Source: an uncultured Planctomycetota bacterium (lineage in GTDB: Bacteria > Planctomycetota > Planctomycetia > Gemmatales > Gemmataceae). Taken from it: a DNA stretch of 64,000 nucleotides. Shown one piece after another: positions 43,367-57,040 of this stretch. Made by a program: the position numbers and the translations under genes. The notes below the pieces were generated by a model that ran no database searches, was not told the DNA's origin, and worked only from the letters and a program-made list of their open reading frames with translations. Within the stretch, counting starts at the first letter, position 1. Each line of letters opens with the position of its first letter. The DNA is taken from assembly GCA_963849325.1 (NCBI GenBank), contig CAWKHF010000002.1, positions 480,001-544,000 of the forward strand. The letters run 5' to 3'.

Positions 43367-44119
43367 CTACTTGCCGGGTCGGAAGATGCGGAACAGTTTC
43401 GTCAACGGGTCGTAGTATTCATCGACCACGCGCTCCTTGAGCGGAATGATGGCGTTGTCGGTGATGTGGATGTGTTCGGGGCAGACCTCGGTGCAGCATT
43501 TGGTGATGTTGCAGAAGCCGATGCCTTCAGCGTGTCCTTCAGCATCGGCGAGCGCGGTCCTCGGTGTCCAGCGGGTGCATCTCCAGGGCGGCGGCGTACA
43601 CGAGGAAGCGCGGGCCGATGAACTCGCTCGTGCAGGTGATGGTCGCGCAGGACGTGGCAAACGTCCTGGCACAGGAAGCACTCGATGCACTTGCGGAACT
43701 CCTGGACGCGGTCGACATCTTCCTGGCTCATGCGCCAGGTGCCGTCCGCGGCGTCGGGCTTGCGCGGCTTGAACGGCTTGATCAGCTTCTTGACGCGGAA
43801 GTTCCAGGACACGTCTGTCACCAGGTCCTTGATGAGCGGGAACGCCTGCATCGGCTCGACGATGACGGGCTGCTCCAGCGGCAACGTCGTCGAGGCGCGT
43901 CATGCACATGAGGCGCGGCTTGCCGTTGATCTCGGCCGAGCACGAGCCGCACTTGCCGGCCTTGCAGTTCCAGCGGCAGGCCAGGTCGTTGGCCTGCGTC
44001 GCCTGGATCTGGTGGACGGCGTCGAGCACGACCATGCCCTCGCCGACCTCGGCCTTGTAATCGTGGAACTGACCGCCCTTGGGGTCGCCGCGCCAGATAC
44101 GGAAGGTCGCTTCAGCCAT
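43367..44119 (-). CDS. sdhB: Succinate dehydrogenase/fumarate reductase Fe-S subunit (frameshifted)
   Basis: CKAGKCGSC...LMC, CIECFLCQDVC, CNITKCCTEVCP. Confidence 0.93.
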   Translation of the reverse strand: MAEATFRIWRGDPKGGQFHDYKAEVGEGMVVLDAVHQIQATQANDLACRWNCKAGKCGSCSAEINGKPRLMCMTRLDDVAAGAARHRRADAGVPAHQGPGDRRVLELPRQEADQAVQAAQARRRGRHLAHEPGRCRPRPGVPQVHRVLPVPGRLPRPARPSPARASSSARASSCTPPPWRCTRWTPRTALADAEGHAEGIGFCNITKCCTEVCPEHIHITDNAIIPLKERVVDEYYDPLTKLFRIFRPGK

Positions 44120-44147
44120 GATGTCTCCCTGCCGTCGCCGCTTGCGG

Positions 44148-45974
44148 CTACTTGTTCTCCTCGATGATCTGTTTCAACTCCGCCGGCATCTCGGGGATGA
44201 GCGTCTCTTCGACCTGCATTCGGCCATCCGTCCCCTTGCGGACGACGACGTTGACCTTGCCGAAATGGCCGTCCTTGTTGGGGTAGTCGTCGCGGAACTG
44301 GCCGCCGCGGCTCTCCTTGCGCTCGCAGGGCGGCGCGGGTGATCGCCTCGGACACGGTCAGCAGGTTGTGCAGGTCCAGGGCGGTGTGCCAGCCGGGGTT
44401 GTACTCGCGGTTGCCGACGACACGCACGCGGCGGGCCCGGTCGCCGCAGCTTTTGCAGCCTTCCAGGGCCCGCAGCATCTCGTCCTCCGTGCGGACGATG
44501 CCGACCAGGTCCTGCATCATCTCCTGCAGATCGTGCTGAATCTGAAACGGGCCCGTCATCGCCGCCCGGCCGGTCGAACGGCTCCAGCGCCCGCCGCGCG
44601 GCGTCCTCGACCTGGTCGGCGTCCGGCACCGCGCCGGCGGCGTGCTCCCTGGCGTAGAGGGCCGCGTATTCGCCGGCGCGCTTGCCGAAAACGAGCAGGT
44701 CGGACAGCGAGTTGCCGCCGAGGCGGTTGGCGCCGTTGATGCCGGCGGCGCACTCGCCGCAGGCGAACAGGCCGGGCACGCGCGACATCTGCGTGTCGCC
44801 GTCCACGCGCACGCCGCCCATGACGTAGTGCGTCGTCGGGCCGACTTCCATCGGCTCGCTGCGTGATGTCGAGGTTGCGCCAGTTCCTTGAACTGGTGGT
44901 ACATGCTCGGCAGCTTCTGCTGGATGTGCTCGGCGGCGTTGGGCATGCTTCTCCTTGATCCAGGAAATATCGAGGAAGACGCCGCCGTGCGGGCTGCCGC
45001 GGCCCTCCTTGACCTCGCGGACGATGCAGCGGGCGACGTGATCGCGCGTCAGCAGCTCGGGCGGCCGCTGGGCGTTCTTGTCGCCCTGGCAGTAGCGCCA
45101 GCCCTCTTCCTCGTCTGTCGGCGGTCTGCTGCTTGTAGTTGTCGGGGATGTCGCTCGAACATGAAGCGCTCGCCGCTGATTGTTCGCAGGACGCCGCCCT
45201 CGCCGCGGACGCCCTCGGTGACGAGGATGCCGCGCACGCTCGGCGGCCAGACCATGCCGGTCGGATGGAACTGGATGAACTCCATGTCGATCAGCTCGGC
45301 CCCGGCGTGGTAGGCGAGAGCATGGCCGTCGCCGGTGTACTCCCAGCTGTTGCTGGTGATCTTGTACGCCTTGCCGATGCCGCCGGTCGCCAGCACGACC
45401 GCCTTGCGCCTTGAAGAGGACGAATCGGCCATGCTCGCGGTAATAGCCGAAGGCGCCGGCGATGCGGTCGCCGTCCTTGAGCAGGCGGACGATCGTACAC
45501 TCCATGTAGACGTCGATGCCGCTGATGGATGCCGTGGTCCTGCAGGGTGCGGATCATCTCCAGGCCGGTGCGGTCGCCGACGTGGGCCAGGCGCGGATAC
45601 TTGTGGCCGCCGAAGTTGCGCTGCAGGATGCGGCCGTCCTTGGTGCGGTCGAAGACGGCGCCCCACGCTTCCAGCTCGCGGACGCGGCCGGGAGCTTCCT
45701 GGGCGTGCAGCTGGGCCATGCGCCAGTTGTTGACGTACTGTCCGCCGCGCATGGTGTCGGCGAAGTGGACCTTCCAGTTGTCGCGCTCATCGACGTTGGC
45801 CAGCGCCGCCGCGATGCCGCCCTCGGCCATGACCGTGTGGGCCTTGCCCAGAAGCGACTTGCACACCAGGCCGACCGAGACGCCGCCGGCCGACGCCTCG
45901 ATGGCGGCCCGCAGCCCGGCGCCGCCGGCGCCGATGACCAGCACGTCGTGTTCGTGAGTCGGATACTCGTTCAT
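44148..45974 (-). CDS. sdhA: Succinate dehydrogenase/fumarate reductase flavoprotein (frameshifted)
   Basis: GAGGAG, AHTVMAEGG, QFHPTG, TEGVRGEGG, HYVMGG, GANRLGGNSL. Confidence 0.95.
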
Positions 45975-46775
45975 CCGATGAGCCTCCAGTCCGTCCATAC
46001 GCCCATGGCGCACAACCGGACGTACAGGTCGGAGAAGGCCACCCAGAACAGGCTGCACCAGGCCCAGAGCATGTGGCGGCTATTGAAACAGCCGACGCAG
46101 TTATACGCCTTGTGCTGCAGCGGATGGCGCGATAGTTGTCGCAGTCTTCCGCCGACGAGGTGGCGCAGCGAATGACAGCCGAGCGTGTATCCGCCCAGCA
46201 GGACGACGTTGACGGCCAATACCAGCGTGCCGACGCCGACGCCGAAGGAGACCTGCGCCGGAAGCATCGGTGAACCAGAGGGCGTGCCAGACATCGAGGG
46301 CGAGGAAGACGAGGAACAGCAGGGCGAGGTAGAGGAAATAGCGGTGGACGTTCTGGATGAGCAGCGGTCCGAAGCGTTCGCCCCAGTAGGAATGGCGCGG
46401 CTCGCCGACGGTGCAGGAAGGCGGATCGGCCCAAAACGCCTTGTAGTAGGCGCCTCGGTAGTAATAACAGGTGACGCGGAAACCGCCCGGTGCCCACAGG
46501 ATGAGCAAGGCCGGCGAGAAAAGCAGCCAGGCCGGCCACCAGGCCGGACGAGGACCGAACCAGCTGTGCGGTGAATCGCCGAACAGCTCCGGCGAGTAGA
46601 AAGGCGATAAATAAGGTCCGTAATAGTAATTCGCGCCCTGGAAGGCCGCCCACGTCGCATAGACGATGAACGCCGACAATCCCAGGAACACCAGCAGCGG
46701 GGTTGTCCACCAGGCGTCTCGGCGGGAAGTCTGGCCGAAGGAACGCAGCGGCAGGCTCAATGGCCCGTGGGACAT
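45971..46775 (-). CDS. Membrane anchor of an Sdh1-type complex (mycobacterial Rv0249c-like; frameshift near 46255)
   Basis: YLSPFYSP, FRVTCYYYRGAYYKAFWADPPSC, QNVHRYF, YTLGCHSLRH, HMLWAW; ATGA overlap with sdhA. Confidence 0.85.
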
Positions 46776-46955
46776 GATGGCCCTCCGAAAAGGGGGGAGC
46801 GATGCGCTCGAACATACTCCCGCGCGCGAGGGTTTGCAAGGGGCTAGGCGGCGAAATCACGATGTCGAATCCTGGTCGCATCGGAACCAGGGTGGTCCCG
46901 GGGCGATCAGAAGACGCCCGGCTCGCGTGGCCGAGCGTGTGAGAACATCCTGTCT

Positions 46956-46968
46956 TAACTGCTTGATT
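46956..46968 (-). promoter_or_regulatory. IHF consensus site
   Basis: Minus strand AATCAAGCAGTTA matches WATCAANNNNTTR. Confidence 0.6.
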
Positions 46969-47007
46969 CCTTATTAGTTGCGCAACGCCACCATCTTCGG
47001 AGCAGGG

Positions 47008-47023
47008 CGGCATTCCATTTGCG
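47008..47023 (+). promoter_or_regulatory. Sigma54 (-24/-12) promoter
   Basis: CGGCATTCCATTTGCG (GG-N10-GC), 64 bp upstream of ATG 47088. Confidence 0.65.
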
Positions 47024-47087
47024 TTACCACTCGCAGACGAGAGTCCCGTCACGGAACACCAACCCCCACAGTGCAGGAGATCGATTC

Positions 47088-48981
47088 ATGACCGCCCCGA
47101 CCATCCTGCTGGTCGATGACGACGAAGTGCTCAGCCAGGTGCTTCGTCGGGTGCTGACGCGCGACGGCTACACTGTGGTGGAAGCCGGCAGTGTCGCTCA
47201 GGCGCTGGAGCGCGCCCGCGAGCAGCGGCCGACTCTCGGCCTGGTCGATCTGCGCCTGCCCGACGGCGACGGCGTGGAGTTGGCCCAGCAGCTTCAGCAG
47301 CAAGTGGGCCGTTTTCCGCTCATCCTCATGACGGCCTATCCGCTGCGTCTGCGCGATCAGCCCGAACTGGCTCGGGGGTTCGCCCACGTCTTGACCAAGC
47401 CGCTCAACCTCGACGAGCTTCGTCAGGCCATCGAGACTAGCCTGGGCGCGACGGCGCCGGCCCGGCCGGGGAGTGCGGAGAAGCCAGCGCTGCCATCCAT
47501 CACCGAGACAGAAGTGGTTCGGCAGCCGCAACCGGAGCCGAGTCCGGTGAGGACAAGGGAACGGCCGCAGGCAAAGCCGAAGCGGCGCCGCCTGCGCTGG
47601 GCCATCGCCGCGAGTGGGATTGTGGCCCTGGTTGGTTTGGCCGTGGCCGTACCCGCTCTCGGCATGCCCAGCCTGCGGCGCTTCCTCAAGCCGCCGGAAG
47701 CGCGGCCCGTGGTCCCCGGCGGCGACTACCGGGCGCAGCTCGTCTCCGAAACCGAGGACGAGATCGAGTTGCCGCGCGACGTGGTCGAGCGGCTAGGCGT
47801 GACGAGTGAGCCGGTCCTGGAGACGGTGGCGCCGCGGACGCTGGAATTGGCCGGCTCGCTGGCCTTCGACCCCAATCGCCTCGGTCGCGTCCAGGCCCGC
47901 TTCGGCGGCGAGGTCGTCGCCATCGGCACGATGGCCGAACGCCGCGCCGACAACGGCACGACACACGAACGGACCCTGCGCTATGGCGACCCCGTCACCA
48001 AGGGACAGATCATGGCCGTGGTCCTGAGCAAAGATCTCGGTGAGAAGAAGAGCGAGTTGGTCGATTCGCTGGTGCGGCTGTGGTACGACGAAGCGCTGTT
48101 GTCGAGCCTGGACGAGTTGATTCGAGAGGGCCGCACGCCTCCGGCGACCGTCCGCACTCAGCGGACCGTGGTCGGCCGCCGACCGGAACGCGGTCGGACG
48201 GGTCGAACTAACTCTGCGGACCTGGCGCGTGGCCGAGGACGAGATCAACGCCGTCAAGGAAGAGGCCAAGCGGGTCTTCGAGCGCAAGGGGCAGCGCGAT
48301 CTGAAAAAGGAAACCGAGTGGGCCAAGGTCGAGGTGCGGGCGCCGTTCGACGGCACCATCGTCGAGAAGAGCGTGAACCTGGGCAACATCGTCGATACCA
48401 CTTTCGATCTCTTCAAGGTCGCCGACCTGCGCAAGCTCGGCGTACTGGTTCATGCTTACGAGGAAGACCTGCGCGAGTTGCAGACGATGTTGCACGAGCA
48501 GCCCCGAGGCTACCCCTGGCAAGTCCGCACCGGCGCCGACCTCACCCGCCAAGTGCTCCAAAGCGAGGGCATGCAGCAGATCGGACTGGTGGTCGATCCC
48601 ACGCAGCACACCGACCCGATCATGGGGTTGGTGGACAATCGGGACGGCAGGCTGCGCGTCGGCCAGTTCGTGACGGCGACAGTCGATTTGCCGTCGCCGC
48701 CCAACGTCGTCTCCCTGCCGGCGTCGGCCCTGGAGGAGGATGGCGCGGAGAGCATCGTTTTCGTCCAGCCCGATCCGACCAAGCCGCGCTACGTCCTGCG
48801 CCGCGTCCTGGTCGCCATGCGGCTGCGCGACATCGTCTACGTCCGCAGCGAGTTGACCGAGCAGGACCGCAAGAAGGGTCTGCAAGAAGTACGACCCGGC
48901 GAATACGTCGTCACCGAGGGCGTCCTGGAACTCAAGGCGGCGCTCGAGGAGTTGCAAGCAAAAGCAAAAGCCAAAAAATAA
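47088..48981 (+). CDS. Receiver domain fused to an RND periplasmic adaptor (CzcB/CusB-like; frameshift near 48175)
   Basis: LLVDDD, VDLRLPDGDG, MTAY, TKP; Pro-rich linker; TM; LAGSLAFDP, GDPVTKGQ, VRAPFDGTIVEK, LRVGQFV, GEYVVTEG. Confidence 0.9.
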
Positions 48982-49074
48982 GTTCTGAGTTCTGAGTGAA
49001 AGAGACTCAAGCTCTCATTGGCTCATGCGGCAGAACTCACTGAACTCAGAACTCAGAACTCAGAACTCAGAACT
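48981..49074. repeat. Heptamer tandem hairpin (TTCTGAG)n...(CTCAGAA)n
   Basis: AGTTCTGAGTTCTGAGTG...GAACTCAGAACTCAGAACTCAGAACTCAGAACT. Confidence 0.85.
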
Positions 49075-49079
49075 GAAGT

Positions 49080-52000
49080 ATGGTTCGCAAACTCATCGAG
49101 TGGGCCGTCAACAGCGCCCTGATCGTGCTCCTCCTGGCCGTCGGCCTGGCTGCGTTCGGCGTTTATGCCTTCAATCACGTCAACGTCGAAGCCTACCCCG
49201 ATCCGGCGCCGGCCATCATCGAAGTCATCGCCCAGTATCCCGGCTTCTCGGCCGAGGAGGTCGAGCGACGGGTGACGATCCCGCTGGAGGTCACCCTGGC
49301 CGGCATGCCGGGACTGACGTACACGCGCAGCAAATCGCTGGCCGGCCTGTGCTCACCTGCGCAACCAGTTCGATTACGGCATCGATTACTACGCCGCGCG
49401 CCAGGAAGTCATCAACCGCCTGCAATTCGTGCAGAACCTGCCCAACAGCGTCACCCCGCAACTGTCGCCGTTCACGCCGACCGGCGAGCTGATCCGCTAC
49501 ACCTTGGACAGGCCGAAAAACACGCGCGGCGAGGAAATTTACTCCCTGATCGATCTCAAATCGCTGCAGGACTGGACGCTGGAGCGCGAGTTTCGCCGTA
49601 TCCCGCGCATCGCCGACGTGTCCAGCTTCGGCGGCATGGTCAAGCGCTACGAGATCCAGCCGGACCCGGCTCGGCTCAAGCGCTACGGCATCACGCTTGC
49701 AGCAGTTCCAGACGGCCATCAGCAACAGCAACGCCAACATCGGGGCCGGCTATCTGCGGCAGGGACCGATCGCCATGAACGTGCGCGGCATCGGCCTGCT
49801 CGGCCGCGGCCAAGACCCGATGCAGCAGCGTGCTGGCCATGAAAAGCCCCTACCTGGCCGCTCGCCGCCTGCGCCAGCAGGAAGAAGCGCGCGTGCGCGA
49901 GATCCGCGACGTCGTCGTGGTGACGGTCAACAACGTGCCCATCCGCGTCGAGGACCTCGTCGCCGGCGGGCCGATCGATGAGCACGACGCAGATCGACGA
50001 AGCCGGCCGAGGCGCCGGACCCACTGGTTCGGCAGCGCCTCGGCGAAGGCGGCGCGAAGGCGGCGAACGCAACCGGCAACGAGGGCGTCGTGGTCGGCTA
50101 CCAGCCGCGCCTGGGCAAGGTCAGCGTGTGCCGGCCCAAGTACGACGACGACGGCAACGTGGTCCGCGATGAGCGAGGGCAACGTCGTCTGGGTGGACGA
50201 GGAAGACAAGGTACAGGGCATCGTCCTGATGCGCAAGAACGAGGCCACCCTGCTCGCCCTCAACAAGGTCAAGGAGAAGGTCGAGGAACTGAACGACACG
50301 CCGGGCCGTCTGCTGCCCGGCGTGCACGATCGAGCCGCACTTCGACCTGACCGGCCTCATCCACGTCACCACCGAGACCGTCCGCGAGAACCTGCTTCTG
50401 GGCATGATCCTGGTGACGGTCATCCTGTTCATGTTCCTCAGCAACGTCCGCAGCGCCCTCATCGTGGCCATCAACATCCCGCTGGCGCTGTTGTTCGCCT
50501 TCTCCGTGCTGTTCCTGCGCGGCAAGTCGGCCAACCTGCTGTCCATCGGGGCCGTCGATTTCGGCATCATCGTCGATTCGTCGGTCATCATGGTCGAGAA
50601 CATTTACCGCCATCTCAGCTCCGGCGAGTACGCGGAACTGCCGCTGAAGGAACGCATCATCCGCGCCTGCCACGAGGTCGAGCGGCCGCTGTTCTTCTCG
50701 ACGACGATCATGGTGTTCGCCTTCATCCCGCTGTTCACCATGCAGGGGCCGGAAGGACAAATCTTCGGGCCGATGGCCGACACCTATGCCTTCGCCCTGG
50801 CCGGCGGCCTGCTGCTGGCGCTGACCGTGGCGCCGGTGCTGTGCTTCCTGTTCTTCAAGAACCTCAAGCCGGCGCCGGACAACTGGCTGGTGCGCTGGCT
50901 GAAGCGCAGCTACCTGCACCAGCTGGAACGCTGTCTGAACCACCGCGTCGTGACGCTGACGCTGTTCGGCTCGCTCACGGCCGTCACCGTCGGCATCCTG
51001 CCCTTTCTGGGCCGCGAGTTCATGCCGGAGCTGGAGGAGGGCAACCTGTACATCCGCGGCACCTTCCCGGTCAACGCCTCGCTGGAGGAGGTGGCCGACA
51101 AGACGCGCCGGGCCCGGGCCATCCTCCGCGCGTACCCGGAGGTCGCCCTGGTCGCCTCGCAGGTCGGCCGGCCCGACGACGGCACCGACCCGACCGGCTT
51201 CTACAACGCCGAGTTCTCCATCCCGCTGCACCCCGACAAGCACTGGCCCGCCGTGGTGCCGCGCACGGGCTGGCTGAGCTGGCTCGGTCCCCGCGCCGCG
51301 CACCAAGCCGGAGCTGATCGACAGCCATGAACCAGCAGATGCACCGCGAGCTGATCGGCGTGGACTGGAACTTCTCGCAGTACATCCGCGACAACGTCAT
51401 GGAGTCGCTGTCCGGCGTCAAGGGCGACAACTCGGTCAAGATCATCGGCCCCGACCTCGACGAGCTGGAGAAACTGGCCGACGAGGTCAAGGCCGTGCTC
51501 GACACCGTGCCCGGCCTGGAGAACGTGGCCGTCTTCCGCATCAAGGGCCAGCCGAACCTGGAGTTCACCGTCGATCGGACCCGGTGCAAGTTCTGGAACG
51601 TCAGTGTGGCGGACGTGGAGAACGCCATCGCCATCGCCGTCGGCGGCCAGGCGTGTACGCAGATGGTCGAGGGCGAGAAGACCTTCGACATCACCCTGCG
51701 CTGGCCGGAGCGGCTGCGCGGCAACGAACAGGCCATCCTCGACATTCCCATCGAGGTGGCCAACAACACCGTCACGCCGGGCTATGTCCCCGGCACGCCA
51801 CAGACGCCGGTGACGGGAGCGAGCATCGGCGTCAATCCCATCGGCACCAACGTGCCCATGCCGTCGTTGTGGGGCAACATCTTCAACGCGGCGGTCAACA
51901 ACCTCAGCAGCGTGCCGCGCCTGCGCCTGGGGCAGCTGGTGACGCCGGTCAACGACGAGGGCCGGCCCGACCCGCACGGGCAAGTACCTGCGCTCCGGCG

Positions 52001-52693
52001 CCTCGACGATCTACCGCGAGCAGGGCAAGCGGCTGATCGCCGTCAAGTTCAGCGTGCGCGGCCGCGACCTGGCCGGCGCCGTGGCCGAGGCCCAGGAGAA
52101 GACGGCCGACCTGTTCAAGGCCCCTTACCGGGCCGAGTGGAGCGGCGAGTTTCAGGAGATGCTGGAAGCGGAGCACCGCTTGATGTACATCATTCCGCTG
52201 TCGCTGGCGGCGATCTTCGTGCTGCTGTACCTGGCATTCCACGACCTGGTCGACGCCCTGCTGGTCTTCTCCAACGTCGTCGCCCTGAGCGTCGGCGGCG
52301 TGTGGGCCTTGCTGCTGACAGGGACGAACTTCAGCATCTCGGCGGCGGTGGGCTTCATCTCGATCTTCGGCGTGGCCATCATGGATGGCCTGCTGCTGGT
52401 GTCCTACTTCAACCACCTGCGCGCCGAGGGATTGCCGCTGCGCGAGGCCATCATGCAGGGGGCGGAGAAGCGGGTGCGGCCGGTGATGATGACGGCGCTG
52501 ACGGCCATCTTCGGCCTGCTGCCGGCGGCGCTCTCGACGCGCATCGGCTCGCAGACGCAGCGGCCGCTGGCCATCGTCGTCGTCGGCGGCATGGTGACGA
52601 CGCTGTTTCTGACGCGCTACCTGATGCCGGTGCTTGTACAGCTTCTACGGCCACCGCGAGCCGCCCTCCGGCGGCGGCAGCCTGGCGCACTGA
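49080..52693 (+). CDS. RND efflux permease, CusA/CzcA family (several frameshifts)
   Basis: EAYPD, AEEVERRVTIPLE, ANLLSIGAVDFGIIVDSSVIMVEN, GREFMPELEEG, GFISIFGVAIMDG, RVRPVMMTAL, QRPLAIVVVGG. Confidence 0.95.
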
Positions 52694-52707
52694 CATATCC
52701 CACCACT

Positions 52708-52760: not shown

Positions 52761-52792
52761 TGTCGAGAAAATGTGTCGAAACCGCCAGTGGC

Positions 52793-52821
52793 TTGGCACT
52801 CCTCTCCGCGGCGCTTATACT
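52793..52821 (+). promoter_or_regulatory. Sigma70-type promoter of the propeller cluster
   Basis: TTGGCA-N17-TATACT. Confidence 0.6.
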
Positions 52822-52916
52822 GCGAACAGACGGCGTGTCCCGCCGTCGCCTGCCTCCCCGGGCTGCTCTTCCGTTTCATCGGAATGGGTAACACCTACCG
52901 CACGCCGAGGTCTTTC

Positions 52917-54194
52917 ATGAAGACAAAAACGCTGCTGGCAATCACTCTTGTCGCTGTCTGCCTTGCCCCGCTGTCGCTGTTCGCCCTCGATTGGCCACAG
53001 TGGCAAGGCCCCGACCGCACCAACGTCTCCAAGGAGACCGGCCTGCTCAAGGAATGGCCTCAAAGCGGGCCGAAACTGCTGTGGACTTCCGAGGACGCCG
53101 GTATGGGGTACTCGGCCCCGGCCATCGTCGGCGATCGGCTGTACTCGATGGGAGCGCGCGACGGCAAGGATTGGCTGTTCGCCTTGGATGGGAAGACGAG
53201 TCAAAAAAAATGGTCCACGCCGATTGGCGATCAATTCAGCAACAACCGAGGCAATGGTTCGCGTGGCACGCCCACGGTGGACGGCGATCGCATTTACGCC
53301 CTGGGGGGGCAGGGTAATCTCGTCTGCGTCAAGACCGATAGCGGCGAAATCGTCTGGCAGAAGAACCTCAAGCGTGATCTTGGCGGAAACATGCAGAACA
53401 ATTGGGGGTATTCCGAATCGCCCCTGATCGATGGCGCGGTCATCGTCTGCACGCCGGGCGGCAGCAAGGGGACCATCGCCGCCCTGGACAAGAACACCGG
53501 CGAGGTGCGCTGGCGGAGCAAGGGATTGATTGACGCCGCCGCCTACTCCTCGCTGGTGGTCTCGAACGCGGGCGGCGTGCGGCAGTACGTGCAGATGACC
53601 GGCAACAGCGTGACCGGCGTGGCCGCCAAGGATGGCCAGGTCCTCTGGAGTTTCAAACGCCCGAGCAACGTGGCGGCAATCCCTACGCCCATCTGCTTCG
53701 ATGATTCGGTGTACGTTTCCTCCGGCTACGGCACCGGCTGCGCCCTGCTGAAGATCAACAAGGATGGCTCCTCCTGGAAAGCGGAGCAGGTGTATGCCAA
53801 CAAGAACATGGTGAACCATCATGGCGGTGTCGTACACCTTGGCGACCATTTCTACGGTTACTCCGACGGCAAGGGCTGGGTGTGTCAGGATGCCAAGACC
53901 GGGGCGGTGGTGTGGCAAGAGCGGAATCGCCTGGGCAAGGGATCGTTGACCTGTGCGGAGGGTCGGCTGTATTGCTACAGCGAAAAAGACGGCACCGTGG
54001 TGCTTGTCGAGGCATCGCCGGCCGGCTGGAAGGAATCGGGCCGTTTCACGATCCCGCAACAAAGCAAACTGCCCCGTCCGAGCAGTCAACCCCGGAACAA
54101 CATCTGGACGCATCCGGTGGTGGCCAACGGCCGATTGTACCTGCGCGATCAGGATTTGATATTCTGTTACGACGTCAAGGGCGGCGAACGCTAA
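52917..54194 (+). CDS. PQQ-binding-like beta-propeller protein 1
   Basis: Signal peptide, DWPQWQGPDR, TPTVDGDRIY, WGYSESPLID, WTHPVVANGRLYLRDQ. Confidence 0.93.
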   Translation: MKTKTLLAITLVAVCLAPLSLFALDWPQWQGPDRTNVSKETGLLKEWPQSGPKLLWTSEDAGMGYSAPAIVGDRLYSMGARDGKDWLFALDGKTSQKKWSTPIGDQFSNNRGNGSRGTPTVDGDRIYALGGQGNLVCVKTDSGEIVWQKNLKRDLGGNMQNNWGYSESPLIDGAVIVCTPGGSKGTIAALDKNTGEVRWRSKGLIDAAAYSSLVVSNAGGVRQYVQMTGNSVTGVAAKDGQVLWSFKRPSNVAAIPTPICFDDSVYVSSGYGTGCALLKINKDGSSWKAEQVYANKNMVNHHGGVVHLGDHFYGYSDGKGWVCQDAKTGAVVWQERNRLGKGSLTCAEGRLYCYSEKDGTVVLVEASPAGWKESGRFTIPQQSKLPRPSSQPRNNIWTHPVVANGRLYLRDQDLIFCYDVKGGER

Positions 54195-54234: not shown

Positions 54235-55530
54235 ATGCGAATCCTCCCGACCGTGTGCGCGGCGGCCCTGGTCTTTGTCCTGTCGGCGGCGGATTGGCCG
54301 CAGTGGCAAGGCCCCAACCGCGACGCCGTCTCGAAAGAGACCGGCCTGCTTGCGAAATGGCCCAAGGACGGACCCGAGTTGGCGTGGACGTTCGACAAGG
54401 CCGGCTCCGGCTACGCCGGTCCCGCCGTCGTCGGCGGCAAGCTGTACACGATGGGCGGCCGCGAAGGCAGCGAATACGTCTTCGCCCTGGATAACAAGGG
54501 CCAGGAACTGTGGAGCGCCAAGATCGGCTCGGTGTACGACTTCGAGGGCAACAACTGGAGCCGCGGCCCCAACGCCACGCCGACGGTAGATGGAGAGCGG
54601 CTCTTCGCACTGGGCAGCCAGGGCGTGCTGGTGTGCCTGGACACCGGCGGCAAGGAGCAATGGCGCAAGGATCTGCCGAAGGAACTCGGCGCCCAGGTCA
54701 GCACCGTCGGCGGCGGGCCGAAGGGCATGGGCTGGGGCTTCTCGTGGTCGCCGCTTGTCGATGGCGATCAACTCATCTGCGTGCCCGGCGGACCCCAGGG
54801 GTTGTTGGCGGCGCTGGACAAGAAGACCGGCGACGTGAAGTGGCGCAGCAAGGCCGTCACGGACCCGTGTCCGTACTCGTCGCCGATTGCGGCGACCCTC
54901 GGCGGCGTCAAGCAGTACGTCCAGGTGGTCAACGCCGGGGTCGTCGGCGTCGAGGCGAAGACCGGCGAGGTACTGTGGAACTTCAAACGCAAGAGACCGT
55001 GGAGCGACGTGCTGTGTCCGACGCCGATCTGCCGGGGTGATTGGATCTACGCGACAGGCACCAAGACGAGCGGCTGCACTCTCATCAAGGTCCACGCCGA
55101 CGGTGGGAAATTCAAGGCGGAGGAAGTGTATTCCAACAAGCTGATCTCGAACTTTCACGGTGGTGTCGTGCTGGTCGGCGATTACGTCTATGGTTATCAC
55201 GCCAACCGCGAATGGGCGTGCCAGAGTTTCGCCGAGGGCGGGGCCAACAAGTGGGAGTCGGACCCCAACGCCCTGGGGGCCGGCGGCTCGGGCGGCTCGA
55301 TCCTCGTCGCCGACGGCCGGCTGTACTGTCTGGCCGATAGCGAGGGCGCCGGCGTCGTCGGCATGATCGAAGCTCGGCCGGACAAATACAGCGAAATATG
55401 CCGCTTCACACTGCCGCGAAAGTCTACCCTGCGCAAAGAGAGCGGCGGCGTGTGGACGCACCCGGTCCTCTCGGATGGATACCTTTACCTGCGCGATCAG
55501 GAATTGATCTTCTGCTACAAGGTGAAATGA
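54235..55530 (+). CDS. PQQ-binding-like beta-propeller protein 2
   Basis: Paralogue of the previous gene: DWPQWQGPNR...WTHPVLSDGYLYLRDQ. Confidence 0.93.
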   Translation: MRILPTVCAAALVFVLSAADWPQWQGPNRDAVSKETGLLAKWPKDGPELAWTFDKAGSGYAGPAVVGGKLYTMGGREGSEYVFALDNKGQELWSAKIGSVYDFEGNNWSRGPNATPTVDGERLFALGSQGVLVCLDTGGKEQWRKDLPKELGAQVSTVGGGPKGMGWGFSWSPLVDGDQLICVPGGPQGLLAALDKKTGDVKWRSKAVTDPCPYSSPIAATLGGVKQYVQVVNAGVVGVEAKTGEVLWNFKRKRPWSDVLCPTPICRGDWIYATGTKTSGCTLIKVHADGGKFKAEEVYSNKLISNFHGGVVLVGDYVYGYHANREWACQSFAEGGANKWESDPNALGAGGSGGSILVADGRLYCLADSEGAGVVGMIEARPDKYSEICRFTLPRKSTLRKESGGVWTHPVLSDGYLYLRDQELIFCYKVK

Positions 55531-55631: not shown

Positions 55632-56955
55632 ATGTTCGCCGCGCCGCGGGATGACATCGCACGGGCGGAGTTGGCCCACTGGCAAATCCAACGCCTGTCT
55701 CTTCTCCTGCGTGACATTCTCCCCGGCAATCGCTTCTACGCTCGCAAGTTTCAGCAAGCCGGGATCGATGTCGCCTCCCTATCCCTACCCGCCGACCTGC
55801 CACGCCTCCCCTTCACGACCAAGTCGGAACTGCTCGATGACCAGGCCCAACATCCTCCCTACGGCGAGATTTTAACGTATCCGGTCGAGCACTACAGCCG
55901 ATTGCACCAAACGTCCGGCACGGCGGGACGGCCGCTGCGCTGGCTGGATACGCCGGAGAGTTGGTCGCGGCTGCTCGACTGCTGGATGACGATGCTCGGC
56001 ATGGCCGGCGTGACGGCGGCGGATCGGCTGTTCTTTCCCTTCTCCTTCGGGCCGTTCCTCGGCTTCTGGACGGCGTTCGAGGCGGCGTCGCGGTTGGGCT
56101 GTCTGTGTCTGCCCGGCGGCGGCCTGAGCAGTTCGGCCCGTCTGCGCTTCCTGCTCGACAACCAGGCGACCGTCATCCTGTGTACGCCCACTTATGCCCT
56201 GCACCTGGCGGAGATCGCGCAGACCGACGGTATCGATTTGGTCGGCTCAACGGTGCGCAAAGTGATCGTCGCCGGCGAGCCGGGCGGCAGCATCCCGGCG
56301 ACGCGCGGCCGCATCGAGAGCGCCTGGGGAGCGCGGCTGTTCGATCACACCGGCATGACGGAAACCGGCCCGCTGGGGATTGAATGTTCCGAGCAGCCGG
56401 GCGGTCTACATCTGTTGGAGACCGAATGCCTGGCGGAAGTGATCGACCCCGAGACCACGCAGTCGGTGCCGGCCGGGACCGAGGGCGAACTGGTGCTGAC
56501 CACATTCGATCGACCAGGCAGTCCGCTGGTGCGCTACCGCACCGGCGACCTGGTGCGCGTCGATCCGCGGCCGTGTCCGTGTGGCCGGGCGCTGGTGCGC
56601 CTCGACGGCGGCATCCGCGGCCGCGTCGATGACATGATTGTCCTTCGCGGCAACAACTTGCATCCCAGCGCCTTGCAGACCATTCTGCATCGTCTCGCCG
56701 AGGTCGCCGAGTATCGCATGGAAGTCGATTACAAAGCCGCGCTGCCGGTCCTGCGCATCGAGGTCGAGCCGCGACCCGGCGTCGCCGGCGACGCCCTGGC
56801 TCGAGCGCGTCGAACACGCCATCCGCACGGAACTGCTTTTCCGCGCCGAGGTGCGGGCCGTTCCGCCCGGAAGTCTGCCCCGCTACGAAATGAAGGCCCG
56901 CCGACTGGTACGAAAAAACGAACCAGGTACTGCAAGCGATCCCTCGAAATCGTAA
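55632..56955 (+). CDS. Phenylacetate--CoA ligase (PaaK)-like adenylating enzyme (frameshift near 56795)
   Basis: LPFTTK, QTSGTAG, TPTYAL, GEPGGS, GMTE, RYRTGDLV, GRVDDM. Confidence 0.92.
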
Positions 56956-56959
56956 AAAA

Positions 56960-57040
56960 GCAATCAGCGGTCAGCGATCAGCAGTCAGCAAAACACAACC
57001 GGACGGATCGCTGATCGCTGATCGCTGACCGCTGATCGCT
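56960..57040. repeat. Heptamer tandem hairpin (GATCAGC-like)n...(GCTGATC)n
   Basis: CAATCAGCGGTCAGCGATCAGCAGTCAGC...GATCGCTGATCGCTGATCGCTGACCGCTGATCGCT. Confidence 0.85.

Follow-up and report, generated by a model that had tools for sequence, protein, structure and literature searches.

Within a window of 64,000 nucleotides from an uncultured soil planctomycete of the family Gemmataceae (genome G000, contig C2, positions 480001 to 544000), we analyzed two adjacent genes for a heavy-metal efflux pump of the resistance-nodulation-division (RND) type. The genome amounts to 8.16 Mb in 14 contigs, with a marker completeness of only 84.7%. The first gene joins a receiver (REC) domain of the two-component kind to a periplasmic pump adaptor through a linker and one transmembrane (TM) helix, and the second encodes the permease (Table 1). 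This REC-linker-TM-adaptor architecture is genuine and conserved, and it lacks a DNA-binding output domain. RND adaptors are regarded as purely periplasmic parts whose cytoplasmic tail is normally short, and tripartite RND pumps are thought to be regulated almost wholly by transcription, with a few small-protein modulators.

We then looked into the receiver. An earlier note on this DNA had described a complete domain with an acidic pocket, an acceptor Asp, a Thr, and a Lys-Pro pair, and each of these elements was recovered: the domain aligned with the full PF00072 profile (positions 1 to 111) at 73.8 bits, above the curated cut-off of 30.2, and carries D10, D11, the acceptor D54, T82, and K104-P105. 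As set out in part of a recent preprint, a true receiver has all five active-site residues (DD, D, T/S, K) (bioRxiv 10.1101/2025.06.23.661182). All five are present in the window protein and in 110/110 aligned family members, which are 42 to 82% identical to the first sequence and in which D10, D11, D54, T82, K104, and P105 are invariant. Since every catalytic residue is kept in all of these members, the phosphochemistry of the receiver appears to be under strong purifying selection, which supports the view that phosphorylation matters. Pfam detected neither a DNA-binding domain, whose absence the earlier note had remarked on, nor a PilZ domain in the window protein, the cytoplasmic part of which matches Response_reg alone.

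The translation continues from the receiver through a Pro-rich linker and the basic stretch KPKRRRLR into a TM helix and the adaptor, just as first described, and this hydrophobic helix (47601 to 47663) is the only one. Across the family, the linker measures 26 to 66 amino acids (aa) with a median of 39, is rich in Pro (24%) and Ala (21%), and has a mean top-residue frequency of 0.26. An AlphaFold2 model of the intact member P0004, computed with a 110-row alignment (mean predicted local distance difference test [pLDDT], 89.9), shows a (beta-alpha)5 receiver at residues 1 to 123, with five strand-helix units in residues 5 to 123 (pLDDT mostly >90), a disordered segment at residues 127 to 163 (pLDDT <50), a long helix at residues 164 to 187, and a confidently predicted adaptor, including the alpha-hairpin, at residues 215 to 622. 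Among the receiver helices, alpha4 is the most conserved (0.90), followed by alpha1 (0.87); the others score 0.61 to 0.71, and the adaptor domain scores 0.63. The cytoplasmic location of the receiver, proposed earlier on grounds of topology, is supported by the homology of the adaptor part to the periplasmic proteins ZneB and CusB, by the single TM helix, and by a charge bias around it (family mean net charge, +2.3 before the helix and +0.9 after it).

As for the adaptor itself, its C-terminal half in the window scored above the Pfam cut-offs for HlyD_D23 (36.3 versus 30 bits) and HlyD_3 (31.7 versus 22.2). A Foldseek search placed the adaptor part nearest to ZneB (3lnn, E 8e-22) and CusB (3ne5, E 3.5e-20), with target TM-scores of 0.57 to 0.68; the top 30 or so matches listed were all solved adaptors (ZneB, CusB, AcrA, MexA, MacA), each with a probability of 1.00, and a profile search likewise retrieved ZneB (3e-22). 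The intact P0004 stayed below the cut-offs of two NCBIfam adaptor models, with 78.4 versus 94.9 for TIGR01730 and 74.5 versus 319.3 for the CzcB/NccB equivalog TIGR00999. The protein is CzcB-like in its fold but lies outside the curated CzcB/NccB family.

Table 1. Features of the REC-adaptor and permease genes in the window, and of related sigma-adaptor genes in three family genomes
Feature	Position	Strand	Remarks
sigma54-type -24/-12 promoter-like element (cGGCAttccatTTGCg)	47009..47024	+	about 65-80 nt upstream of the ATG
REC-adaptor gene	47088..48981	+	about 630 codons; two frames owing to the 1-base insertion at 48179
receiver (REC) domain, residues 6-116	47103..47435	+	PF00072, E 1.6e-20, 73.8 bits
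acceptor Asp54 codon	47247-47249	+	inside the receiver domain
Pro/Ala-rich linker, unconserved, predicted disordered	47457..47573	+	family composition; model pLDDT
basic stretch KPKRRRLRW, then single TM helix	47574..47663	+	translation read directly
periplasmic adaptor, N-terminal half	47664..48179	+	REC frame; about 150 residues; family profile positions 1-364 in frame
periplasmic adaptor, C-terminal half (barrel-sandwich, beta-barrel, membrane-proximal)	48184..48981	+	family profile positions 364-627
1-base insertion breaking the adaptor frame	48179..48179	+	base missing in 4/4 intact same-genus orthologues
CusA/CzcA-family (ZneA-like) RND permease gene	49080..52693	+	ACR_tran on four pieces; split over frames
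permease frame breaks, eleven 1-base insertions	49352, 49694, 49827, 49990, 50016, 50173	+	versus four intact same-genus orthologues
permease 1-base insertions, continued	50324, 51298, 51323, 51974, 52634	+	operon DNA alignment
sigma-adaptor intact open reading frames, three family genomes, 703-761 aa	L254:360-2471, L255:104-2389, L256:157-2361	+, -, -	

The permease was identified in the window as four pieces matching Pfam ACR_tran, and residues 1 to 1180 of the orthologous permease of G009 are all represented there by tblastn pieces in alternating frames. This intact orthologue exceeds the TIGR00914 cut-off (773.9 versus 701.45 bits). The best solved match of the permease is ZneA (4k0e), with 560.7 bits versus 425 for CusA. 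Its TM4 motif, AVDFGIIVDSSVIMVEN in the window, aligns residue for residue with the DFG..D..EN of ZneA, whereas CusA has AVG..D..EN. We take DFG..D..EN to mark the divalent-cation class of RND permeases, and by this motif the predicted pump is of the divalent-cation heavy-metal type. Permeases of the family have about 1180 aa, compared with about 1045 to 1055 aa in ZneA and CusA, and query residues from about 255 to 350 are unmatched by ZneA; a variable permease insertion lies at 49990 to 50172 in the window. Adaptor and permease genes adjoin each other in the window, as they do in every one of the 23 REC-bearing loci whose sequence extends far enough, the loci of G018 and G072 being cut by a contig end or by the end of the examined stretch. 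The spacer between the two genes (49025 to 49078) contains short tandem repeats with ACTCAGA-like units; G009 and G006 also have tandem repeats in the orthologous spacer, but their sequence differs. On one contig (L050/L246), two permease genes flank the REC-adaptor gene, in the order bacterial enhancer-binding protein (bEBP), outer-membrane efflux protein (OEP), outer-membrane protein (OMP), RND1, REC-adaptor, and RND2.

We then asked how widely the fusion occurs. Residues 1 to 364 were searched against 5.8 billion proteins, and among the 120 best matches listed, 116 combine PF00072 and the adaptor family PF25973 in one protein of 489 to 693 aa. The four exceptions are two proteins annotated as REC only, the N-terminally truncated P0108, and P0106, a miscalled read-through. 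The alignment of 110 of the 120 leaves out P0108, P0106, the partial P0044, and seven sequences with 32 to 38% query coverage. We also surveyed 201 species genomes of the family, 75 of which contain an adaptor match at E <= 1e-40, and found 13 full-length single-frame fusions, 5 contiguous but frame-broken ones (the window among them), and 2 two-gene arrangements, the counts leaving out one further locus (G072:C74). The fusion of G045 is an open frame without the first 26 or so receiver positions, and that of G002 has a frame break after the TM helix and is not a split form. Outside the family, 200 genomes representing 86 other families of the phylum yielded no match at E <= 1e-60, a floor given the stricter prefilter. 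From a library clustered at 50% identity (1.84 billion representatives), the best 150 matches inspected included about 28 full-length fusions and 5 partial or longer REC-bearing forms. Scans by receiver-motif patterns yielded one relevant metagenome locus among 80 listed (L117); about 19 of 80 loci listed from genome contigs were adaptor or fusion matches, the remainder being unrelated receivers.

These results settle whether the fusion point, at 47440 to 47600, could be an artefact of assembly or gene calling that joins a response-regulator gene to an adaptor gene. The many indels of the assembly and the true two-gene arrangements of some relatives would speak for such a joining. However, the 116 listed homologues with both domains in one open reading frame (ORF) come from independent short- and long-read assemblies, the 13 single-frame fusions come from distinct species genomes, and in the window itself the receiver and the N-terminal half of the adaptor share a frame on both sides of the linker. 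Because intact single ORFs of 600 to 690 aa with the same layout occur in so many independent assemblies, the fusion point is not an artefact, and that alternative is already refuted. The architecture thus recurs in related genomes, where the earlier note proposed to look for it, and homologues are not always two separate genes: most are fused, though genuine two-gene forms exist. In databases, the fusion proteins are automatically labeled either "response regulator" or "cobalt-zinc-cadmium efflux system membrane fusion protein," and each label hides one half of the protein.

The window copy of the operon has frame breaks. The earlier note saw one uninterrupted frame, which holds for the receiver, the linker, the TM helix, and about 150 adaptor residues; the frame opened by the ATG at 47088 covers codons 1 to 364 only, shifts at 48179, and is high-GC nonsense beyond. 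Relative to the intact G009 orthologue, the match is 66.8% over residues 1 to 367 and 74.3% over residues 369 to 629. The twelve breaks of the operon stand in the deposited sequence, and could be real mutations of a decaying pseudogene; the read runs sampled for source material reached a best share of words of 0.11. We regard this explanation as very improbable. All operon breaks are single inserted bases, at about 1 per 470 bp, and no single-base deletion was seen in it, although two insertions, at 49990 and 50016, lie within a variable loop and are less certain. The same signature marks the immediately upstream sdhA/sdhB genes (succinate dehydrogenase/fumarate reductase), where comparison with four intact homologues reveals about nine 1-base insertions specific to the window in 2.7 kb. 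Between the breaks, the protein sequence is 88 to 89% identical to that of G009 over long stretches, without decay by stops or substitutions. The assembly has few contigs yet low completeness, and similar operon breaks occur in other assemblies of this kind (G002, G007, G175, G135). Short-read contigs of related soil organisms, which are relatives and not the source strain, lack a base at 49350-53, 50173, 50324, and 52634-36. Because the adjacent sdh genes show the same defect, the breaks are probably errors of long-read assembly. Four soil read runs gave only short contigs of relatives, with a depth of 0 to 1.2 over 47464 to 47651 that is uninformative on the junction. Over 43367 to 52700, coding 1-base insertions occur at about 1 per 300 to 470 bp, with no single-base deletions, and ORF-based readings of this genome will come out fragmented.

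We next analyzed how the operon may be controlled. The alignment of the window with four same-genus orthologues contains a sole conserved upstream block, YGGCRY-N5-TTGC, which resembles a sigma54-type promoter. A GG-N10-GC core with at most two mismatches to TGGCAC-N5-TTGC lies 44 to 85 nt upstream of the first gene in 15/16 REC-bearing loci, a count that overstates their independence, as close relatives share the string and starts were approximated from profile matches. The element spans both fused clades and the split forms described below, the sixteenth locus having three mismatches. In random 275-nt windows from the same loci (5,000 draws), at most two mismatches were found in 7.6%, at most one in 1.1%, and none in 0.4%. 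The element is absent from all four REC-less loci compared. A strict, longer sigma54 pattern was of no use, giving 26 matches across the window versus 26.2 expected and missing the element, which has three mismatches to it. Sigma54 itself (rpoN) is encoded in the genome (PF04552, 196.6 bits), and we infer that the element at 47009 to 47024 could act as a sigma54 promoter.

In four REC-bearing loci (G188, G175, G045, L051), a histidine kinase gene and an NtrC-type sigma54 activator gene adjoin the operon; with L050, where a bEBP gene stands at the contig edge, such linked genes were found in 5 of the 23 distinct REC-bearing loci within the examined flanks. A REC-less Zavarzinella pump is likewise flanked by bEBP and kinase genes. 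The linked kinases score best on AtoS/ZraS models and the regulators on NtrC/AtoC/ZraR models, all below the equivalog cut-offs, and the kinases have two TM helices enclosing a helical extracytoplasmic domain of about 135 to 150 residues. In the window's own genome, contig C7 encodes an intact homologous kinase/activator pair, which shares 56% and 44% identity with the L051 pair and has no linkage to the pump. The earlier note had contrasted the fusion with the transcriptional two-component control of related pumps; this contrast is not supported, as the sigma54-type promoter and the linked kinase/NtrC-type genes point to transcriptional control here as well. Its statement that no kinase or outer-membrane factor gene lies next to the fusion is correct for the window, where no homologue of either was found within 35001 to 64000, but not for the relatives: besides the kinase/activator genes of 5/23 loci, an outer-membrane factor gene adjoins 7/23, often followed by a porin-like OMP gene. 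In L242 (G065), the REC-adaptor, RND, and OEP genes follow one another on one strand, the outer-membrane factor gene lying downstream and not upstream as elsewhere. An OEP homologue of the window's genome (42% identity) stands alone on contig C9 and was not retained as a pump partner. The closest REC paralogue in the genome was also considered as a route to the kinase and dropped, its C12 neighborhood being uninformative. The miscalled P0106 (880 aa, from an error-prone assembly) reads from the C terminus of a sigma54 activator into a REC-adaptor and informs gene order only.

Natural variants of the fusion were then compared. In two lineages, one represented by G012 and the independent metagenome contig L117 and the other by G071 (the same metagenome-assembled genome as L049), the receiver is a separate first gene of the pump operon. 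These free receivers have about 125 to 180 aa, and in both stand-alone forms the five catalytic residues are all intact; a stop closes the REC ORF and is followed by a Shine-Dalgarno-like GGAG or AAGGAG and an ATG, and the adaptor retains a tail of about 10 cytoplasmic residues. Two genomes of the window's genus (G003, G005) encode the orthologous adaptor without a receiver, directly after a porin-like gene. A maximum-likelihood tree was built from 42 adaptor-domain rows, omitting the window and others with a frame-split adaptor. In it, eight fusions form one clade (support 100/100) and the window's genus forms another (100/100), with the REC-less G003/G005 pair nested inside the fused clade of the genus (100/99) and the split forms branching near the base of the second large clade. 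Given the branches with good support, the fused state must have changed at least four times. Permeases measure 1180 to 1186 aa in four fused loci and 1163 to 1173 aa in REC-less loci.

Other N-terminal modules occur on the same adaptor. Among the best 150 representatives, 23, selected for N-terminal extensions, were run through Pfam. Five distant representative clusters (P0134, P0138, P0144, P0145, P0165) carry a degenerate receiver that Pfam does not detect, in which the acidic pair and mostly also the Lys are replaced, while the acceptor Asp and the fold are kept and the linker is shorter; full-length profile alignments were made for two of the five. Nine full-length representatives (P0174, P0177, P0182, P0196, P0228, P0231, P0246, P0247, P0250) and the partial P0232 have instead an extracytoplasmic function (ECF) sigma factor N-terminal to the adaptor, with Sigma70 regions 2 and 4, a spacer, one TM helix, and the adaptor in 691 to 761 aa. 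Two genomes (G145, G072) hold both a sigma-adaptor and a REC-adaptor. In P0207, a pair of EF-hands takes the place of the receiver on the same adaptor family. One bacterial family has thus put a phospho-receiver on an RND adaptor and, in sister proteins, a sigma factor.

The conserved design suggests that the pump is wired directly into the signaling system that switches it on. We tentatively propose, as a possibility that we hold with some reserve, that the main job of the tethered receiver is to couple the pump back to signaling, where it would stand beside the activator as a second acceptor. In this proposal, an envelope-sensing kinase belonging to the pump family would phosphorylate an NtrC-type activator and so turn on a two-gene, sigma54-promoted operon for a ZneA/CzcA-like, divalent-metal-type RND efflux pump. 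The phosphorylatable cytoplasmic receiver, tied to the adaptor by a flexible tether of about 40 residues and one TM helix, would be a second acceptor of that kinase, so that the same enzyme would presumably phosphorylate the receivers of both adaptor and activator. As adaptor builds up at the membrane, its tethered receivers would drain phosphoryl groups from the kinase or activator, or bind them, and output would follow how much pump has been made, or its state, by a phosphate sink or by partner sequestration. The effect would then be a feedback on signaling and not a control of the pump. Phosphate-sink receivers are known, for example, in chemotaxis, and the alternative raised in the earlier note, that the pump could serve as a phosphate sink, comes near to this proposal.

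We consider such feedback more likely than a gating of the pump, for several reasons. The linker is unconserved, varies from 26 to 66 aa, and is predicted to be disordered; free-standing REC genes occur in independent assemblies, and REC-less orthologues are nested among the fusions; the receiver comes first among the products of the operon that it would regulate; helix alpha1, which docks kinases, is conserved (0.87); and a component of transcription, the ECF sigma factor, is fused to the same adaptor scaffold.

The alternative of direct phospho-control, which was the main idea of the earlier note and strikes us as rather unlikely, holds that phosphorylation alters how the tethered receivers bind one another or the permease trimer at its cytoplasmic face, so that assembly of the adaptor hexamer or pump activity would be switched in seconds, alongside a slower transcriptional branch. 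It accounts for the invariant active site in 110/110 members, for the conservation of alpha4 in the alpha4-beta5-alpha5 face (0.90, top among the helices, versus 0.63 for the adaptor domain), and for the retention of the covalent tether in two well-supported clades. The pseudo-receivers, which keep the fold with shorter linkers, suggest a binding role near the membrane, and precedents may be seen in Alg44's PilZ domain and in the cytoplasmic domains of HlyD-type adaptors, as far as the consulted parts of the literature describe them (PMC4436075 for Alg44). However, mechanical coupling via the TM helix is unlikely through a disordered, unconserved linker of 26 to 66 residues. Natural split adaptors keep almost no cytoplasmic part, REC-less orthologues within a genus imply that the pump does not need the domain, and no permease feature was found that separates REC-associated from REC-less systems.

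It is also conceivable, if improbable, that the REC fold is a phosphorylation-independent cytoplasmic scaffold or oligomerization module, with an active site that is a remnant or serves fine-tuning. In its favor, the fold persists in five representative clusters without the acidic pair and mostly also without the Lys, and ECF sigma or EF-hand modules can take the same position; set against this are the five catalytic residues invariant in 110 members that are 42 to 82% identical, the two stand-alone REC genes that keep all five, and the REC-less orthologues, which imply that no scaffold is required.

A number of observations weigh against the proposed feedback on signaling. The most conserved helix, alpha4 (0.90), belongs to the classical output face, which hints at a conserved binding partner, and this partner could be the pump. 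In five representative clusters, the acidic pocket is destroyed although the REC fold persists; a pseudo-receiver cannot be a phosphate sink, so that in these cases, at least, the domain acts by binding. For a sink, a free receiver would be enough, but two old clades have kept the tether. Neither the window nor 18/23 REC-bearing loci have the kinase/activator pair linked to the operon within the examined flanks, and the adaptor receiver is only about 32% identical to that of the C7 activator, which ranks sixth among the REC matches of the genome, so that similarity does not indicate a shared kinase specificity. The comparison of promoter and receiver occurrence concerns related loci, only four of them REC-less, and because two REC-less adaptors come after another gene, their promoter could be located farther upstream. 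The frame breaks of the window could be real. Finally, all steps beyond a phosphorylatable receiver are ones that we infer from sequence.

A broader interpretation, which we find doubtful, is that the N terminus of the Gemmataceae adaptor is a docking platform for the transcription-control parts of the pump, whether the part is the receiver of a kinase/sigma54-activator system, a receiver that has degenerated, or an entire ECF sigma factor, and that the pump itself is a signaling device. Periplasmic adaptor assembly or substrate loading would then set the phosphoryl flux or the sigma activity at the promoter. Flux-sensing transporters follow a comparable logic.

We compared the fusion with known systems. 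Its component parts, receivers, heavy-metal RND pumps and adaptors, and kinase/sigma54-activator pairs, are known, and the joining of receiver and adaptor appears to be new: a full-text search found no published description of a receiver fused to an efflux adaptor, though an earlier census may list one. The adaptors ZneB, CusB, and CzcB (of ZneCBA and CusCBA, for example) share the periplasmic fold and the gene position directly upstream of a CusA/CzcA-family permease, but their N terminus is short and lacks the cytoplasmic receiver, the tether, and the TM anchor of the fusion. In layout, the nearest known protein is Alg44 from Pseudomonas aeruginosa, which, in the consulted sections of two reports, has a PilZ domain, one TM helix, and a membrane-fusion-protein-like periplasmic domain, and in which cytoplasmic ligand binding activates the machine posttranslationally while stability and interactions are unchanged (PMC4436075, PMC4971617). 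Like the REC-adaptor, it combines a cytoplasmic signal-input domain, one TM helix, and a membrane-fusion-protein-like periplasmic part; it differs in its input, cyclic di-GMP via PilZ, and in its partner, the glycosyltransferase Alg8 instead of an RND permease. HlyD-type adaptors of ABC and MFS pumps and of type 1 secretion, in the sources as far as consulted, have cytoplasmic domains that are not receivers and work with ABC or MFS partners, and RND adaptors are typically anchored differently from them, as exemplified by the anchorage of AcrA.

On the regulatory side, the arrangement resembles ZraSR and AtoSC in its kinase and sigma54 activator and in the sigma54-type promoter before the regulated operon; the linked kinases and regulators are relatives and not orthologues of these, scoring below the equivalog cut-offs. 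In the Zra and Cpx systems, the regulated product (ZraP, CpxP) feeds back on the kinase, whereas the putative feedback element here is a receiver domain on the pump adaptor. Single-domain response regulators acting as sinks or connectors likewise have a complete active site and no output domain, and the receiver is free-standing in two of our lineages; unlike them, it is usually tied covalently to a membrane machine, and its sink role is putative. With respect to the sigma-adaptors, CnrH/CnrYX with cnrCBA is, in the part of the source consulted, a case of an ECF sigma factor dedicated to a heavy-metal RND operon (PMC7826278). There, sigma factor, anti-sigma factor, and pump are separate proteins, whereas in the present adaptor family the sigma factor is fused to the adaptor. 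The terms HlyD and "membrane fusion" are absent from the main texts of two ECF classification papers, and neither main text mentions a sigma factor fused to an adaptor.

The fusion adds a class of output or partner for response regulators of which we found no description, and it raises a testable question, namely, whether a two-component system acts on, or listens to, an efflux pump posttranslationally. Natural controls are at hand in the pumps whose receiver is split off, degenerate, or missing, at times in members of a single genus. The REC-adaptor idea may have arisen more than once. In a protein atlas, clusters that combine REC with an RND membrane fusion protein or an HlyD/AprE-type adaptor (65, 213, and 88 members; scores of 0.90, 0.86, and 0.85) belong mostly to Cyanobacteriota where the phylum is known; they are unconfirmed leads only.

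Lastly, we looked at the genes around the pump operon. Upstream, on the minus strand, an sdh/frd cluster (43367 to 46800) contains SdhB-, SdhA-, and SdhC-like genes. A DNA search of 8 same-genus genomes found nothing close to it, and its SdhA protein has no match in four same-genus genomes; over nearly its full length, the cluster is 71 to 78% identical to genomes from another family within the order. Another sdhA-like match lies on contig C12 of the same genome. The cluster could be the product of horizontal transfer or of a mis-join. Directly downstream of the pump are two tandem paralogous genes for PQQ_2/BamB-like beta-propellers (52773 to 54194 and 54235 to 55530), followed by a gene for an AMP-binding enzyme (55632 to 57014).

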